Source of the DNA: a virus
Length of the DNA stretch: 64,000 bases
Direction: 5' to 3' (one strand)
Virus record (IMG/VR): IMGVR_UViG_3300043411_000704
Span: 16,257-80,256 of that record
The position numbers and the translations under genes were made by a program. Of this stretch, positions 3,028 to 28,459 are shown in pieces. How positions within the stretch are numbered: the stretch's first letter is position 1; each line of letters starts with the position of its first letter. The notes beneath the pieces are model-generated. The model saw only the letters and a program-made list of their open reading frames with translations, had not been told where the DNA came from and made no database searches.

Positions 3028-3752
3028 ATTTGTTTCCAATCTAATTTTAATCTAGGAATTCCTTTAAGGTGCCCATCTTTCAATGTATCACCATAATATC
3101 CGTGCTTCAATAACAAAATTTGTTCAGGAACTTTAATTTGCAATTGATCTACTAAATTAGAGAAACAACTTTCAATCAAATAATGTCCTACCATATTTTC
3201 GAGTGTTGTAATCCAATCAAACACACTAAGAGAATCGGGCGTCAGAAATCTAGTATCATGACGGTTACAATAACCTTCCAATTTTTCAAATGATAGTTTA
3301 GTATCAGATGAGTGCATCTGTGCTATTTTCTTCAAATTATTATATGCTAATATATTTTTTTCAACATCTAAATCTCTATTAGTAATCTGTAAATTCCACT
3401 TTTCTTCAAATGGAACTTCTGCGATCTCATACTTCATTTCATCAAATGAAAGACTATCATTGTGATTCAAATACCAGTCTGTATTATGACTATTTGCACC
3501 GGGGAGCGTGAATGCTAGATCAATAACTCGGTTACAACTATTTTGGAAACAAATCTGATGTGCTGCCATACAGTTAAAATCGTTTAGAGGAATAAATTGA
3601 ACATAATCAACATATCCAATAAAGTTGTTTATAATGTCTTTGTGAACAGGCCAAATGACTGTCCATCCACGGTCAGCATACCATTTAGCAATGGGCAAAC
3701 ATATAATAATGTCTCCTATTTTTCCAGGTTGAATGATACCCAATTTTTTCAT
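3024..3752 (-). CDS. GT9 (heptosyltransferase)-like glycosyltransferase
   Basis: N-terminal IIQPGKIGDIIICLP motif; start trimmed to MKKLGII, just after the upstream stop. Confidence 0.65.
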   Translation of the reverse strand: MKKLGIIQPGKIGDIIICLPIAKWYADRGWTVIWPVHKDIINNFIGYVDYVQFIPLNDFNCMAAHQICFQNSCNRVIDLAFTLPGANSHNTDWYLNHNDSLSFDEMKYEIAEVPFEEKWNLQITNRDLDVEKNILAYNNLKKIAQMHSSDTKLSFEKLEGYCNRHDTRFLTPDSLSVFDWITTLENMVGHYLIESCFSNLVDQLQIKVPEQILLLKHGYYGDTLKDGHLKGIPRLKLDWKQI

Positions 3753-3753
3753 G

Positions 3754-4614
3754 TTATGCATTATAACGCAAATGATTTTCCGTTTCAAGAGAAAAGATGT
3801 TAAAAAACTCTTGTGAGAACTCTTTTTCACCCGGTTGCGGTTCCATAAATGCACCAAATGGTTTACGATTTACCAAGTTTTTTTGTAAATGGTAGTGCAT
3901 CATATTATAACACAAGTGGTCGAATGGTGTGGATTTCCGTAAATTAGTATTCCATTGCAACTCTGGAGTATCGTCTTTCCATTGAATCTCATGTCTAATA
4001 TGAAATAATATGGGAAAAGTTGGGGCATTAAATATCTGTCCACCAGTGACCGATATTATACCTGCAAAAATTTGATCAAATTGAGAAATCCCTAAAATAT
4101 AATCTTGTAAAAGATGATTATATTTCTTCCACCACTCTTTGGTTACAACCAAAAAATCATATCCAGCGATTTCTAGGCGTAAAACACCAACATTTCCACT
4201 AGCTAACTCATCAAATGAATTAACATCTTGTATATCCAGTCTAGACACTGCAATTGCAGGTGGTTGTATTTTATTGTAAAGTTCATGTATAAGTGATGTG
4301 ATAATACAATCCGAATTTACCCATCCTATATGAGTGACTGACTCATCGTTTTCCACACTTTTATAAACTTCTTCTAGAATGTCCCGCACAATTGGAAGTT
4401 TTTTAGTTCCATGTGGAACTATATCTAATGATGATCTACTTAATTTTGGCAAAACTTCTATACCATCATATTCTATAGTGGGTTCATCTTCAAATTGAAC
4501 AGCCTTTATCTGAACAAAATCTGGATATTTTTTCATCAGATGTTTCCATGAATCAACCGCCACATCTTGTCGATGATATTTACCAAAAATATTTGATCCC
4601 AACACTATTTTCAT
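3754..4614 (-). CDS. Putative GT-A glycosyltransferase, paralog of 4611-5456
   Basis: GWVNSDCII; shares RQDVAVxSW, KKLP, SRxDI and AGxDx motifs with its neighbour. Confidence 0.6.
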   Translation of the reverse strand: MKIVLGSNIFGKYHRQDVAVDSWKHLMKKYPDFVQIKAVQFEDEPTIEYDGIEVLPKLSRSSLDIVPHGTKKLPIVRDILEEVYKSVENDESVTHIGWVNSDCIITSLIHELYNKIQPPAIAVSRLDIQDVNSFDELASGNVGVLRLEIAGYDFLVVTKEWWKKYNHLLQDYILGISQFDQIFAGIISVTGGQIFNAPTFPILFHIRHEIQWKDDTPELQWNTNLRKSTPFDHLCYNMMHYHLQKNLVNRKPFGAFMEPQPGEKEFSQEFFNIFSLETENHLRYNA

Positions 4615-8933: not shown

Positions 8934-9487
8934 TTGCTAGCTAATTTGTAAATGTATTTCATTTTAGTTTCGTCACCAAAATATTGTTCCAATTCTTCAC
9001 CATTTTTGACCAAAATTTGTGTATTACTTGGATCAGTTTCGTCTAATACATATACTTGTAGTTTAGAATCATCTGCAAACGATTTCCATAACAAAAACCC
9101 TTTTGGGGTGTGAATACTATCAGATTTGACGTATTCAAAATTATCCAACAAGAATTCAGTATATATCTTATACATTATAGAACCTATTTGTCCCGAATTC
9201 CAAATATACATTATAGTAACACCACCATCATCTTGGACCTCTAATTCAATATATCCAATGACCAAGGAATTATCCTGAACTAGGTAAAATTCTATATAAG
9301 AATCAAACTGAAACATTTGCACATTAATGGTGTTACCATTAATGTGCAAATCCTCTACTGGCTGCAAATTGTCGTGATGTTTATGCCATTTATTCTGGAA
9401 GTCAGATGCATTAACTTTGATTGGTCGCGCCCTTGTTGACATCTCCATTAATATCTTTTTAATCAGTTTATCAAATTTTTCGGTCAT
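8930..9487 (-). CDS. Hypothetical protein with KFDxL N-terminal signal; possible GNAT-like fold
   Basis: Begins MTEKFDKLIKKILME; SDSIHTPKGFLLWK; resembles 63300-63836. Confidence 0.7.
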   Translation of the reverse strand: MTEKFDKLIKKILMEMSTRARPIKVNASDFQNKWHKHHDNLQPVEDLHINGNTINVQMFQFDSYIEFYLVQDNSLVIGYIELEVQDDGGVTIMYIWNSGQIGSIMYKIYTEFLLDNFEYVKSDSIHTPKGFLLWKSFADDSKLQVYVLDETDPSNTQILVKNGEELEQYFGDETKMKYIYKLASK

Positions 9488-15820: not shown

Positions 15821-16273
15821 CTATTGAACTTCAATCTTTTTGATCACTGGTTCAACCTTTTGTGTCTTGGGAATCGTAATTTTCAACATCCCATCCTCAA
15901 ATTTAGAACTCAGACCATTTTCTTCACCTTTATCAATAATATCCCATTTCCATTTACGGGATTTATGTGAAATACTTTGCTTGAAATACTTCACATCGTC
16001 CCGTTTAGTTGTGCCATTGACTTCGACATTAAGATAACCGTCTTGAACAGTTACTACAATATCCTCTTTCTTATGACCTGCAAGGGGGATATCAATATAA
16101 AATTCTTTATCTGTTTCAGATAAAGAATAATCCATTGGATAATCCACCTTTACGTTCAAGAATCTATCCAGATAGGAATCTGAAAAGAAACTATCAAATA
16201 CTTTATCTAATTCCCCAAAAACCCCAAAACCGGATGTCTTCGGCCAATATGTTGTGTTTATTAGTTTACTCAT
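15821..16273 (-). CDS. Small heat-shock protein Hsp20
   Basis: PLAGHKKEDIVV and FEDGMLKITIPK alpha-crystallin motifs; C-terminal IEV motif. Confidence 0.92.
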   Translation of the reverse strand: MSKLINTTYWPKTSGFGVFGELDKVFDSFFSDSYLDRFLNVKVDYPMDYSLSETDKEFYIDIPLAGHKKEDIVVTVQDGYLNVEVNGTTKRDDVKYFKQSISHKSRKWKWDIIDKGEENGLSSKFEDGMLKITIPKTQKVEPVIKKIEVQ

Positions 16274-24753: not shown

Positions 24754-25185
24754 TTAACATAAATCAATGGGTATTTCACCGGTTTTAGTTGATTTTGATG
24801 CTAATTTATCACAATAATTATTCCAATGGTTGAGTGGATCATGACCCTTCAACCAGCACAGTCTAATATTTTCATTAATCATCGGACATAATTCATCCCA
24901 CATATCTATGTTCGCTCTTTTCTTCCAGCCTTCCATAATAGTATTCACCACATATTTTGAATCACTGTAAATTGTTGTATCCCAATCATGTTCAATCTTT
25001 TTGATTGCCTCCATAACTGCCTTGATCTCCATTCGATTGTTAGTCGTATTCTTCATCCTACCATATCCATCAACTATCAGTTGATCATTATCATCAACAA
25101 TAGCATATGCATACCCACCTATATTATGGGCTCCTCTGGTGTTGAAATCACATGCACCATCTGTATAAATTTTTACTTTCTTCAT
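24754..25185 (-). CDS. rnhA: Ribonuclease HI
   Basis: IYTDGAC, TTNNRMEI, IYSDSKY, WLKGH and NNYCDKLA motifs. Confidence 0.95.
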   Translation of the reverse strand: MKKVKIYTDGACDFNTRGAHNIGGYAYAIVDDNDQLIVDGYGRMKNTTNNRMEIKAVMEAIKKIEHDWDTTIYSDSKYVVNTIMEGWKKRANIDMWDELCPMINENIRLCWLKGHDPLNHWNNYCDKLASKSTKTGEIPIDLC

Positions 25186-25295
25186 TATCTAAATTTAACC
25201 CAATCTAAACAACAAATCAAGCAAAATCTTCAAATTCAGCATCAAAAACACGCTTTTTCAGCTTAATATTTAGTAAAAGATTGTAAATATATAAT

Positions 25296-25500
25296 TGTTA
25301 TCAGGTGGTTATGAGGAAGAGAGAATAGGAATTCCCTTCCTGGCGAAACTCTTTGAGTTTTTATAGACAAGAAGTTATCCTACTCTCTTCCAAATGTAAC
25401 CTGATAAATCAGTATGGCCCCATCGGAATCCAGTCTAAGTTTTGATGGGTAAATTTGGAAATCCCCTTGACCAGTCGAGCGGTTGATCCCCTTCCGTATC
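25296..25500 (+). ncRNA. Candidate late-expressed structured ncRNA
   Basis: TAAATA at 25284-25289; nested stems 25298-25306/25399-25407, 25315-25323/25383-25391 and 25326-25330/25378-25382; hairpin 25419-25449 with G-U pairs on the plus strand. Confidence 0.55.
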
Positions 25501-25630
25501 AACACTAAATTTATATGTAAACTAATGGTGATCCATTTTATTGGACGAAGTATTAGTTAAGTTCTATTTAAACAGATTCGAAATACGATTGCAAGTTTTT
25601 TCTTCATCCATTGTAAACTTTTTTTCTCTG

Positions 25631-25638
25631 TATAAATA
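25631..25638 (+). promoter_or_regulatory. T4-type late promoter TATAAATA
   Basis: Exact T4 late consensus 7 nt before the ATG at 25646. Confidence 0.85.
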
Positions 25639-25645
25639 AATTTCG

Positions 25646-26092
25646 ATGACACCAAAATTTGACGAATTATATACCCAATTAATGGAAGACCTTTCACAAC
25701 AAGGAAAAGGATTGTTGGCCAATCAGGGAGGTGGAGGATCACCAGCCAATAATTCGTCAAAGCCTATTACAGCGCCTTCTACTAGTTCCGCACCAGCAGT
25801 CAAGCCTGCAACCAATCTATCAGGTCAAAAGCCTTTAAACAGCACACAGCAAGATTTTGGGGTATTGTTACAAGATCCGAACGATAATACAGCAGCAGAT
25901 GCGGTATTGAATCATTTGACTACTAATAATATTGATTTTAACGATCCTAAATTTGCAGAAACACCTGAAGGACAGGCAATAGGACAAAGAATTCAAAAAA
26001 ATCCTAAATTTGCAGATGCACTAGATCAGGCACAACAGCGATTGATTGCCGGTGCATCAGATGCAACTAAACAAGCATTTGCAACACAATAA
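25646..26092 (+). CDS. Putative virion internal protein (KFDxL signal)
   Basis: Begins MTPKFDELYTQLMED; low-complexity Ala/Gln/Ser; late promoter. Confidence 0.75.
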   Translation: MTPKFDELYTQLMEDLSQQGKGLLANQGGGGSPANNSSKPITAPSTSSAPAVKPATNLSGQKPLNSTQQDFGVLLQDPNDNTAADAVLNHLTTNNIDFNDPKFAETPEGQAIGQRIQKNPKFADALDQAQQRLIAGASDATKQAFATQ

Positions 26093-26132: not shown

Positions 26133-26807
26133 ATGACCAAGAATTTTGACGTATTATATAATAGAATAATTGCAGAAGCAGCAGATGATTCTGAATTACC
26201 GGATTTTGGTCAGCAACAAGATCAAGGTGGTGATACCCAAATGGATCAAGGATTGGCCGATCTTTCGCCTGATGAATTAGGTATGGACGAATCCAAACCA
26301 GTTCCACCCGAAGAACTAGAATTGGCACATTTGGCAATCAGGGCAGTAAATTTTGACATTAAATCTAAAGATGTTCATCAATATGGATTTCAGGATAATA
26401 CGGGCAATAGAATATCATTTGAACAGATTCCTTCATATTTCGAAGAAACCAAAGACTGGAGACGTGTATTAAAGTTTATTGAATGGTTGATCAATAAATT
26501 TGAAGGTGTTAATTCTCAATGGGCAGAAGAACAGGAATTAAAAGGGAAGAATATTTTACAAAAAATAAGTATTATTAATCGAAAGAATAAGGCAAATCCT
26601 GAACTACAGTTGGATAATTCTAAACGGCTGGTTTGGACTCGTATTATTTTGAATGCACTCATTAATTCAGATTCTTCTATGAACATTATTGGTTCGGATA
26701 TTGATGAAAAGAGTTTACCTGATATATTCAATCAACTTAAACAGAATTTTATGCACAGTTCAACCGGATTATTCGCCAATAAACCAGTTCACCCAATCAA
26801 CAATTAA
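26133..26807 (+). CDS. Putative virion internal/prohead protein (KFDxL-like signal)
   Basis: Begins MTKNFDVLYNRIIAEA; TAAATA at 26121-26126. Confidence 0.75.
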   Translation: MTKNFDVLYNRIIAEAADDSELPDFGQQQDQGGDTQMDQGLADLSPDELGMDESKPVPPEELELAHLAIRAVNFDIKSKDVHQYGFQDNTGNRISFEQIPSYFEETKDWRRVLKFIEWLINKFEGVNSQWAEEQELKGKNILQKISIINRKNKANPELQLDNSKRLVWTRIILNALINSDSSMNIIGSDIDEKSLPDIFNQLKQNFMHSSTGLFANKPVHPINN

Positions 26808-27157: not shown

Positions 27158-28459
27158 ATGTCCAACAATTCATTTGAAATGGGTAAAAAGTATACATATA
27201 ATGCTTCATCTGGAAAAATAACATTTCTATCTGAAGAAAAGTTTGGAAAAAATTTGGTTTATGATCGAAGCACAGTTAAAAAAATACTAGAATTGTATTC
27301 TGATTTTGATGGTGTTCCGCACACCGTAACCGAAATAAGTCAAAAAACAGGGGTTCCAAAAGATAGGGTGTTGTTTGTTGTTAAAGCATTAGGAAAAACT
27401 CACAGTTGTTTACCTGTGATTCCAGAAGAACTTGATGTTCATCCGGTTGAACAAATTGTAGATGATTTAGTTGAATCTAAAGAACATGTGGTAAAAGCAA
27501 AATTTGAAAAAGTATGCTTACAAAAAACAAAAGAAGATGCAGCAAATTGGTTGGAATTAAAATCGGGCAAACTTTCGCTGGTTAAGGACTATCTGAAAAA
27601 TTTGAAAATCAGTTCTCCCGTTATATACAAACCGATTTTCACACCAGTAAAATCAGGTGATGTATACCTTGCATCAGTATCAGATATCCATTTTGGTATT
27701 CAGCATTATGCCGAGAATGCATTTAACGGCAAACCATATGAATTTGAAGATATTAAGGAAATAATTGAAAACTATATTCATGATATTATTCGAGATGTGA
27801 ATAATCGTAAAACAGGGTTTGAAAAATGTGTGTTAGTCAATGCAGGTGATACCCTACATTCACTTTCAGGATTTACTTCAAAAGGGACTAAATTACAGGA
27901 TGGAGTATGGGGACATAAACAGTTTGTGCTTGCATTCGAAACGCTTACATTTTTAATCCAAAGTCTGAACAATATATTTGGAACAGTAGAAGTTAAATCG
28001 GTCGGGGGGAACCATGCATTTATAGAAGATTACATTCTCTTTTATTCACTAGAGAAATACTTTGACAAGAACAACAAAATACTGTTTGATATATCAACCG
28101 CTCGATGGATGGATTTTGTGATTAAAAACACGCTATTTGTGGTAGATCATGGTAGTAGTGCAACCATTAAATCAGTTCTTCCCGAAGGCAGTAAACAACG
28201 TGAAGCATTTATTCAAAATATTTTTATGAACGTCAACACATCTAAGTATGATACGATTGATCATCGGGTGTATATCTGTGGGGACAAACATAATATTCAG
28301 TATGGTGAATATGCAAACTTTGAATTCGTGCGGTTTAGCACACCAGTAAAAGGTGAAAGCTATTCAGATCAATTAGGTCTTAAAAATAGACCGAGGTTTA
28401 ATGCATTGGTAATCAATGATGATGGTATAAAAGAAATTCTAAATTATTACGTGAAGTGA
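27158..28459 (+). CDS. Calcineurin-like metallophosphoesterase with N-terminal HTH-like region
   Basis: SDIHFG, AGDTLH, GGNH, DHG and GDKH motifs. Confidence 0.8.
   Translation: MSNNSFEMGKKYTYNASSGKITFLSEEKFGKNLVYDRSTVKKILELYSDFDGVPHTVTEISQKTGVPKDRVLFVVKALGKTHSCLPVIPEELDVHPVEQIVDDLVESKEHVVKAKFEKVCLQKTKEDAANWLELKSGKLSLVKDYLKNLKISSPVIYKPIFTPVKSGDVYLASVSDIHFGIQHYAENAFNGKPYEFEDIKEIIENYIHDIIRDVNNRKTGFEKCVLVNAGDTLHSLSGFTSKGTKLQDGVWGHKQFVLAFETLTFLIQSLNNIFGTVEVKSVGGNHAFIEDYILFYSLEKYFDKNNKILFDISTARWMDFVIKNTLFVVDHGSSATIKSVLPEGSKQREAFIQNIFMNVNTSKYDTIDHRVYICGDKHNIQYGEYANFEFVRFSTPVKGESYSDQLGLKNRPRFNALVINDDGIKEILNYYVK

Follow-up and report, generated by a model that had tools for sequence, protein, structure and literature searches.

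A candidate structured small RNA in the non-coding gap between RNase H and a long gene block of an uncultured T4-like phage

A non-coding gap between two oppositely oriented gene blocks of an uncultured, T4-like phage contains a structured element, which we tentatively read as a separate small-RNA gene, the structured product of which would measure about 205-215 nt and be transcribed from the plus strand. If real, this would probably be a phage small RNA of a previously undescribed RNA family. The structured element had been noticed in a sequence-only reading of the window (the whole stretch of 64,000 nucleotides analysed here), and this observation was confirmed. Support for a candidate RNA comes from the way the element folds, from its bias to one strand and its rarity within the genome, and from the presence of a like-built element with a real terminator in a relative. 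Against it stand the lack of a canonical terminator in the window copy, the lack of a recognisable -35 sequence, a promoter class that differs between the two phages, and a long hairpin (H1) that is neutral with respect to strand. We infer both the transcription of the element as a discrete molecule and its mode of action, and we therefore regard it as a reasonable candidate and not as a demonstrated RNA.

The window comes from an IMG/VR virus record of 80 kb that is estimated to be about 31% complete. T4-type core genes are present, and the DNA polymerase shares at best 31% identity with those of cultured phages (tblastn). Genes are oriented leftward up to position 25185 and rightward from position 25646, where a co-oriented block of 22 kb begins (25646-47911). 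The last leftward gene encodes an RNase H (24754-25185, minus strand; PHROG 531, E 1e-31), and the first rightward gene (25646-26092, plus strand) encodes a protein with the N-terminus MTPKFDEL for which no family match was found. The non-coding gap between them measures 460 bp (25186-25645). It had been called the largest intergenic gap, which is plausible: the bigger gaps between ORFs of at least 100 aa are occupied by abutting small ORFs, and for this reason the 460-bp gap is plausibly the biggest truly non-coding stretch. The left boundary of the element is set by the promoter-like site of the RNase H gene (25193-25220, minus strand), in which TTGATT (25220-25215) is followed by 16 nt, TTAAAT (25198-25193), 7 nt and the ATG at 25185, a layout shared with other early-looking genes. 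Its right boundary is the late-type promoter TATAAATA (25631-25638, plus strand), read from the sequence 7 nt before the ATG of gene 25646-26092. Among 50,697 phage records, blastn found nothing that matches the gap. In tblastn searches against cultured phages the RNase H reached at most 41% and the 224-aa neighbour found nothing, leaving the region without a close cultured relative. An N-terminal MTxKFDxL... peptide is common to two otherwise unrelated proteins of the window (25646-26092 and 26133-26807), and it is also retained in their homologues in a distant relative (L089, 2764-3177 and 2074-2751, see below). This N-terminus is reminiscent of the short capsid-targeting leaders of T4 internal proteins.

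The promoters of this phage are closely tied to start codons. At about 22 genes in the window, TAAATA is followed by 5-7 nt and a start codon, and early-looking genes show TTGACA-N17-TATAAT, 6-9 nt and an ATG; the same promoter-to-start layout is seen in the relative L089. Shine-Dalgarno-like 4-mers occur upstream of 76 phage ORFs at a frequency of 9.2%, compared to a background of 8.8%, and judged by these start regions the phage messages seem to be leaderless or near-leaderless and free of Shine-Dalgarno sites. By our estimate, TAAATA is rarer than the base composition predicts.

In the gap, the TAAATA that had been reported at 25284-25289 is indeed present, as part of a promoter-like stretch AAAGATTGTAAATATATAAT (25276-25295, plus strand) that also holds an overlapping TATAAT (25290-25295). 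A usable -35 sequence was not found for this stretch. The 11-mer GATTGTAAATA (25279-25289) is identical to the late-type box before gene 27158, and here it is followed by a hairpin and not by a gene. This combination of a -10 box and a hairpin stands out, because promoters in this phage normally sit 5-9 nt before start codons. The earlier view that no start codon lies at the usual distance needs a correction, since a TTG located 5 nt after TAAATA (25295) opens a frame of 23 codons; however, this frame is not conserved. The identity with the box before gene 27158 likewise agrees with the earlier designation of a late promoter, but the relative has TATAAT and not TAAATA at the aligned place. A late promoter for the candidate RNA is plausible from these motifs in the window only, the promoter class being different in the two phages. 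Both phages do have a block AAAGATT[G/A]TAA located 9-11 nt before the foot of the hairpin, as seen by eye and in a MAFFT alignment of the hairpin regions.

The segment 25284-25500 folds on the plus strand with -63.7 kcal/mol and a z-score of -4.4, and none of 200 shuffled sequences folded as well. On the minus strand the z-score is -2.35. The 5' part is taken up by H1, an imperfect long hairpin of 110 nt (25298-25407, plus strand; z = -5.1) with CCCUU in an internal loop near its tip. Its perfect arms are TTATCAGGT/ACCTGATAA (25298-25306 and 25399-25407) and GGAAGAGAG/CTCTCTTCC (25315-25323 and 25383-25391), inside which TAGGA/TCCTA is nested and then an apical hairpin AAACTC-TTT-GAGTTT; all of these stems had been recognised correctly from the letters. 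Among 4260 sliding windows of 114 nt on the plus strand, H1 ranked second after correction for GC content. Other top-ranked folds were located at about 48436, 58981 and 36286 (all plus strand) and at 9241-9353 (both strands), where positions 9313-9353 form a perfect 18-bp palindrome. Within a 150-aa ORF (15821-16273), the minus strand has a separate perfect hairpin of 12 bp with a T run behind it (16102-16128), and the surrounding stretch of 161 nt has a z-score of -4.2. This hairpin could be an internal terminator, or the ORF could be mis-called.

Because H1 folds equally well on both strands, it is the 3' half of the element that sets the strand. The specificity for the plus strand that had been proposed is thus seen in the 3' half but not in H1 itself. 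Positions 25415-25515 fold with -23.5 kcal/mol on the plus strand versus -18.7 kcal/mol on the minus strand. A second predicted hairpin, H2 (25419-25449, plus strand), had been described as a 10-bp hairpin with G-U pairs that work on the plus strand only. It is indeed plus-specific, but it has 11 pairs, of which three are G-U, and the minus strand keeps 6. H2 is followed by UAAAUUUGG and, from its sequence, could be a weak terminator. Further downstream, a first CCCCUU motif (25463-25468, plus strand) is paired in most of the predicted ensemble (P unpaired 0.12), and a terminal hairpin formed by GUUGAU and AUCAAC (25482-25503, plus strand) presents the loop CCCCUUCCGU, the motif of which is predicted to be largely open (P unpaired 0.75). 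The position of this last hairpin matches that of the terminator hairpin in L089, and it has no U run behind it. A canonical terminator was not found anywhere in the window gap, so that the RNA may extend into the gene downstream; strong terminators are used elsewhere by the same phage. An A/U-rich hairpin, H4 (25520-25558, plus strand), is predicted between the candidate RNA and the promoter of the next gene, and its membership of the RNA is uncertain. The element as a whole has a GC content of 0.38-0.47 compared to 0.25-0.27 in its flanks, and it forms a GC island in an AT-rich gap. The candidate RNA would start at about position 25296, at the foot of H1 and right after the -10-like box, and it would end near 25505, past the hairpin with CCCCUU in its loop.

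Known RNA families did not account for the element. The whole window was searched against Rfam 15, as had been suggested, and no family matched at the gathering threshold or, beyond noise, at E-values up to 10, where the best hits were RgsA on the minus strand (19 bits versus 88) and the hairpin of a plant miRNA (15 versus 195). The Rfam-curated phage RNAs, including the families from T4-like cyanophages, do not match the window, and ARAGORN detected no tRNA or tmRNA in it. A mobile hairpin repeat of the MITE or REP type was considered and rejected, the element being present in a single copy in the 80-kb record with no similar stretch elsewhere in the window.

Scans of viral, metagenome and genome contigs with the RNase H, its alignment, the 148-aa gene, the polymerase and the alignments A5 and A3 yielded one syntenic record, IMGVR_UViG_3300033121_001123. 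We refer to this record as L089; L090, L111 (a locus of 11.5 kb) and L259 are the same record. All other loci from these scans contained only distant RNase H genes. Nearer RNase H homologues (P0001-P0003 and P0124) with 61-82% identity (82, 74 and 61%) are located on contigs of up to 243 kb. The comparison of the element is one of two sequences, the window and L089. The proteins common to the two phages share 31-42% identity, and the gene order is the same, namely RNase H, gap, MTKFD gene, a 225-aa gene and then a 434-aa gene. One strand of L089 carries genes of 434, 176, 225 and 137 aa; the product of the last one starts with MTKFD, and this gene is preceded by a TAAATA-N6 box. The adjoining gap measures 376 bp, and beyond it are an extra 144-aa ORF and the RNase H gene on the opposite strand. 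This extra ORF (3554-3988, plus strand) separates the RNA candidate from RNase H, and tblastn gave no counterpart of it in the window.

One relative, L089, was found to carry a like-built element at the same place. On the strand pointing toward the MTKFD gene, which corresponds to the plus strand of the window, the L089 gap contains a TATAAT, 8 nt, a 107-nt hairpin, two further hairpins and a terminator. The hairpin has 22 uninterrupted basal pairs and a z-score of -8.7, and it is the top fold of 761 windows in L111. Like H1, it is equally stable on both strands. The terminator is canonical, with CTGCGGTG-CCCCTTAG-TGTGCCGCAG followed by CGTTTTTGT; it consists of 9 pairs, the loop CCCCUUAG and a U5 tail. 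No second terminator was found in 1.4 kb, and this one points toward the MTKFD gene. About 235 nt separate the -10 box from the U run in L089, and the same landmarks are about 210 nt apart in the window. The 9-bp basal stem of H1 resembles the foot of the L089 hairpin, and both hairpins have CCCTT near the tip (by eye and in the MAFFT alignment of the hairpin regions). The basal stems, TTAT[C/G]AGGT and AC[C/T]T[G/C]ATAA, differ by one compensatory flip from C-G to G-C and by one change from G-C to G-U.

At the level of overall sequence, the two gaps are no more similar than shuffled sequences: a Smith-Waterman comparison scored 23 against 21.2 ± 2.5 for shuffled gaps, and 121 of 500 shuffles scored as high. 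Aligning the two gaps globally with MAFFT gave no meaningful result. A covariance model derived from the single L089 hairpin did not recover H1 in the window at E-values up to 10 and found only generic perfect hairpins or terminator hairpins. Scans of viral and genome collections for DNA patterns made of the shared blocks, which returned about 170 loci, gave no third member; except for L111, these loci were rejected as chance matches after failing the checks of the 3' foot, the fold and the motif. We infer a common descent of the two elements from their place, orientation, build, length and loop motif, with no demonstrable sequence homology.

The motif TCCC(C)TT had been said to recur three times, and it does so in the window as TCCCTT at 25333 and as TCCCCTT at 25462 and 25487. 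CCCCTT occurs in 11 copies in the 128 kb formed by both strands of the window, and two of these copies are located 25 nt apart in the element. In L090 there are 4 copies per 12 kb (both strands), and two of them are in the element on the same strand, one in the loop of the terminator. The motif was named before any relative was examined, and its occurrence in L089 is therefore an independent test. Given how often the motif occurs locally, at least two copies would fall in the L089 element with a probability of about 0.003, and among 91 loci only the window and L089 have a pair of CCCCTT within 250 nt in low-GC DNA. The 3'-most CCCCUU lies in the loop of the last hairpin in both phages, with a probability of being unpaired of 0.75 in the window and 0.91 in L089. 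Other CCCCTT sites of the window (38667 and 16082) were examined as possible paralogues and found to be unrelated to the element.

A base-pairing riboregulator would be the likeliest mode of action. The long 5' hairpin may stabilise the RNA or offer a site for RNase III, and the exposed C-rich loops (UCCCCUU) may form base pairs with G-rich sequences, AAGGGG for example, in mRNAs of the host or the phage. Pairing of the C-rich loops with G-rich sites is proposed because this design matches that of the Rsa RNAs of staphylococci, in which a 5' hairpin and a 3' terminator accompany unpaired UCCC motifs, and these motifs pair with ribosome-binding sites (Geissmann et al.; PMC2790875). Like the UCCC-motif riboregulators of Firmicutes (RsaA-K, RsaE/RoxS and the RNAIII hairpins; PMC2790875), the candidate combines a 5' hairpin with several unpaired C-rich UCCC or UCCCC motifs, one of which is in the loop of a 3' terminal hairpin, and it falls within their size of one to a few hundred nt. 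UCCCCUU is found in the last loop of both phages, with a second or third copy upstream. Both a 5' hairpin and a classical terminator are present in L089, whereas in the window copy, which does have a 5' hairpin, the last hairpin is not followed by a U tract. In contrast to these riboregulators, the candidate has a far longer 5' hairpin (107-110 nt), and it has no match to RsaE in sequence or model. It also differs from the Rsa class in that the phage's own genes are without Shine-Dalgarno sites and the window copy lacks a classical terminator. Because the phage genes show no Shine-Dalgarno signal, a blocking RNA would have no obvious substrate in the phage itself. Seed duplexes with the start regions of 76 phage genes were no better than those of shuffled seeds. 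The best complementarity in the phage, of 13 nt between 25475-25487 and positions 28093-28105 in the mRNA of a 433-aa exonuclease gene, is not significant (E 0.16). Neither of these searches of the window revealed a phage target. Of the sequence-only reading, the non-coding, structured plus-strand RNA is supported as the best interpretation, and its C/U-rich motif has held.

Non-coding RNAs have been described in lytic and jumbo phages, with four in PA5oct (PMC7318152) and others on the RNA map of phiKZ (PMC8244752), and T4-like cyanophages have CfrI, PhotoRC-II and wcaG RNAs and a glutamine riboswitch (PMC9964418). The candidate resembles these RNAs in being phage-encoded, intergenic, structured and located in a large genome of the virulent type. 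It differs from them in that they come from RNA-seq or belong to other families, while the candidate is known from sequence alone.

The element could also act in cis as the 5' leader of the 22-kb rightward block, that is, as an attenuator or a put-like antitermination RNA for which the terminator of the relative would be a regulated or overridden stop. Its location makes this worth considering, since in both phages it is directly upstream of a long co-oriented operon and points to it. Moreover, read-through is to be expected of a window copy without a terminator of its own, and the L089 terminator is located about 55 nt before the promoter of the next gene. The put RNA of phage HK022, which acts in processive antitermination, has about 70 nt and two short hairpins. 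It is similarly a structured RNA just past a promoter, at the head of a long operon and with a terminator downstream; however, the candidate is about 210 nt long with a single hairpin of 110 nt, and past the element the operon is served by a promoter of its own. Indeed, in both phages the downstream gene has a late-type promoter 6-7 nt before its start codon, and because of this promoter most downstream expression would bypass the leader. Beyond a possibility of 5-6 bp no alternative antiterminator pairing is evident, and no riboswitch or leader family of Rfam was matched. We consider a role as a leader unlikely, albeit one to be kept in mind.

We also find it rather improbable that the element is a functionless structured spacer and that the features shared by the two phages are a coincidence. 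This would agree with the lack of significant sequence similarity, with the failure of the covariance model to match one hairpin to the other, and with the fact that only two genomes, in which the blocks shared by eye are short, are compared. However, it would require the joint occurrence of rare features, namely a fold of top rank in each of the two syntenic gaps together with two rare CCCCTT motifs on the same strand in both. It would also be at odds with the otherwise tight packing of genes with overlapping or abutting ORFs.

An element acting at the DNA level at the point of divergence, either as an origin of replication (with an R-loop primer or a cruciform) or as a protein-binding inverted repeat, is in our view improbable. 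The strand-neutral stability of H1 in the window and of its counterpart in L089 would suit such an element, as would the position next to RNase H in both phages and at the switch of gene orientation, where the cumulative GC skew has its minimum (about 26 kb). But this minimum, although found by the GC-skew check that had been proposed, coincides with the orientation switch and is explained by gene orientation alone, so that it decides nothing. The R-loop origins oriF and oriG of T4 combine a middle-type promoter with an AT-rich DNA unwinding element downstream of it. The element shares with them a predicted promoter-proximal transcript, an intergenic position, a T4-type genome and a nearby RNase H, but it has no AT-rich unwinding element and no conserved MotA-type box, and it differs further in the strong self-fold of the RNA and the terminator in the relative. 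A loose resemblance to a MotA box, AGCTTAA at 25260-25266, is absent from L089. Neither iterons nor tandem repeats are present, and the promoter is followed by a self-structured stretch with a higher GC content. The 3' half with its G-U pairs is specific to one strand, and the terminator in the relative is oriented and discrete. These observations speak against the R-loop origin that had been put forward as an alternative.

A short leaderless gene, represented by the 23-codon frame at 25295-25366 (TTG) or by a 26-codon frame in L089 (with an ATG 4 nt after TATAAT), is very hard to reconcile with the data. Both elements do open a short frame right after the -10-like box, which is the layout of real genes here, and Pro14 and Lys18 coincide. 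Yet BLASTP did not align the two frames even at an E-value of 100, their N-terminal halves differ in charge (acidic versus basic), the nucleotide foot common to both elements is read in different frames, and the ATG of L089 would be too near the -10 box to be part of the transcript. Corresponding small ORFs were not found between the two gaps.

Equally far-fetched, to our mind, is the idea that the candidate RNA imitates the 3' end of 16S rRNA and masks the ribosome-binding sites of host mRNAs, which would bias translation toward phage genes. The sequence of the last hairpin with its loop is GCGGUUGAUCCCCUUCC in the window, the corresponding L089 sequence is CCUGCGGUGCCCCUUA, and the 3' end of the 16S rRNA of Escherichia coli is CCUGCGGUUGGAUCACCUCCUUA. 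We take the 5' arm and loop of the last hairpin (window 25476-25496; L089 3279-3264) to resemble this 3' end, including the anti-Shine-Dalgarno sequence, with one U missing. An abundant copy of the anti-Shine-Dalgarno sequence could be useful if, as it seems, the phage messages are leaderless and free of Shine-Dalgarno sites. In 6S RNA, a rod spans the entire molecule, its large central bubble imitates an open promoter, and the RNA binds the sigma70 holoenzyme and serves as a template for product RNA. Lastly, the 6S-like RNA polymerase decoy proposed in the sequence-only reading would suit a phage that reprograms transcription, and also an RNA of about 200 nt that is long and for the most part double-stranded, but it is scarcely credible, given that neither hairpin has a large central bubble (there are only small internal loops, and L089 has 22 uninterrupted pairs), that the rod covers only half of the RNA and that no 6S model matched at E-values up to 10.

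Small RNAs have seldom been described in virulent phages, and hardly any come from uncultured T4-like lineages. If the candidate small RNA is real, it would represent a new RNA family that has stayed beside the same genes despite a drift of the proteins to 31-42% identity, and its testable feature would be the C-rich loops on a scaffold of a 5' hairpin and a terminator. In a phage with promoters that abut the start codons and with genes that are free of Shine-Dalgarno sites, an RNA that may be aimed at G-rich ribosome-binding sites would be worth a look.
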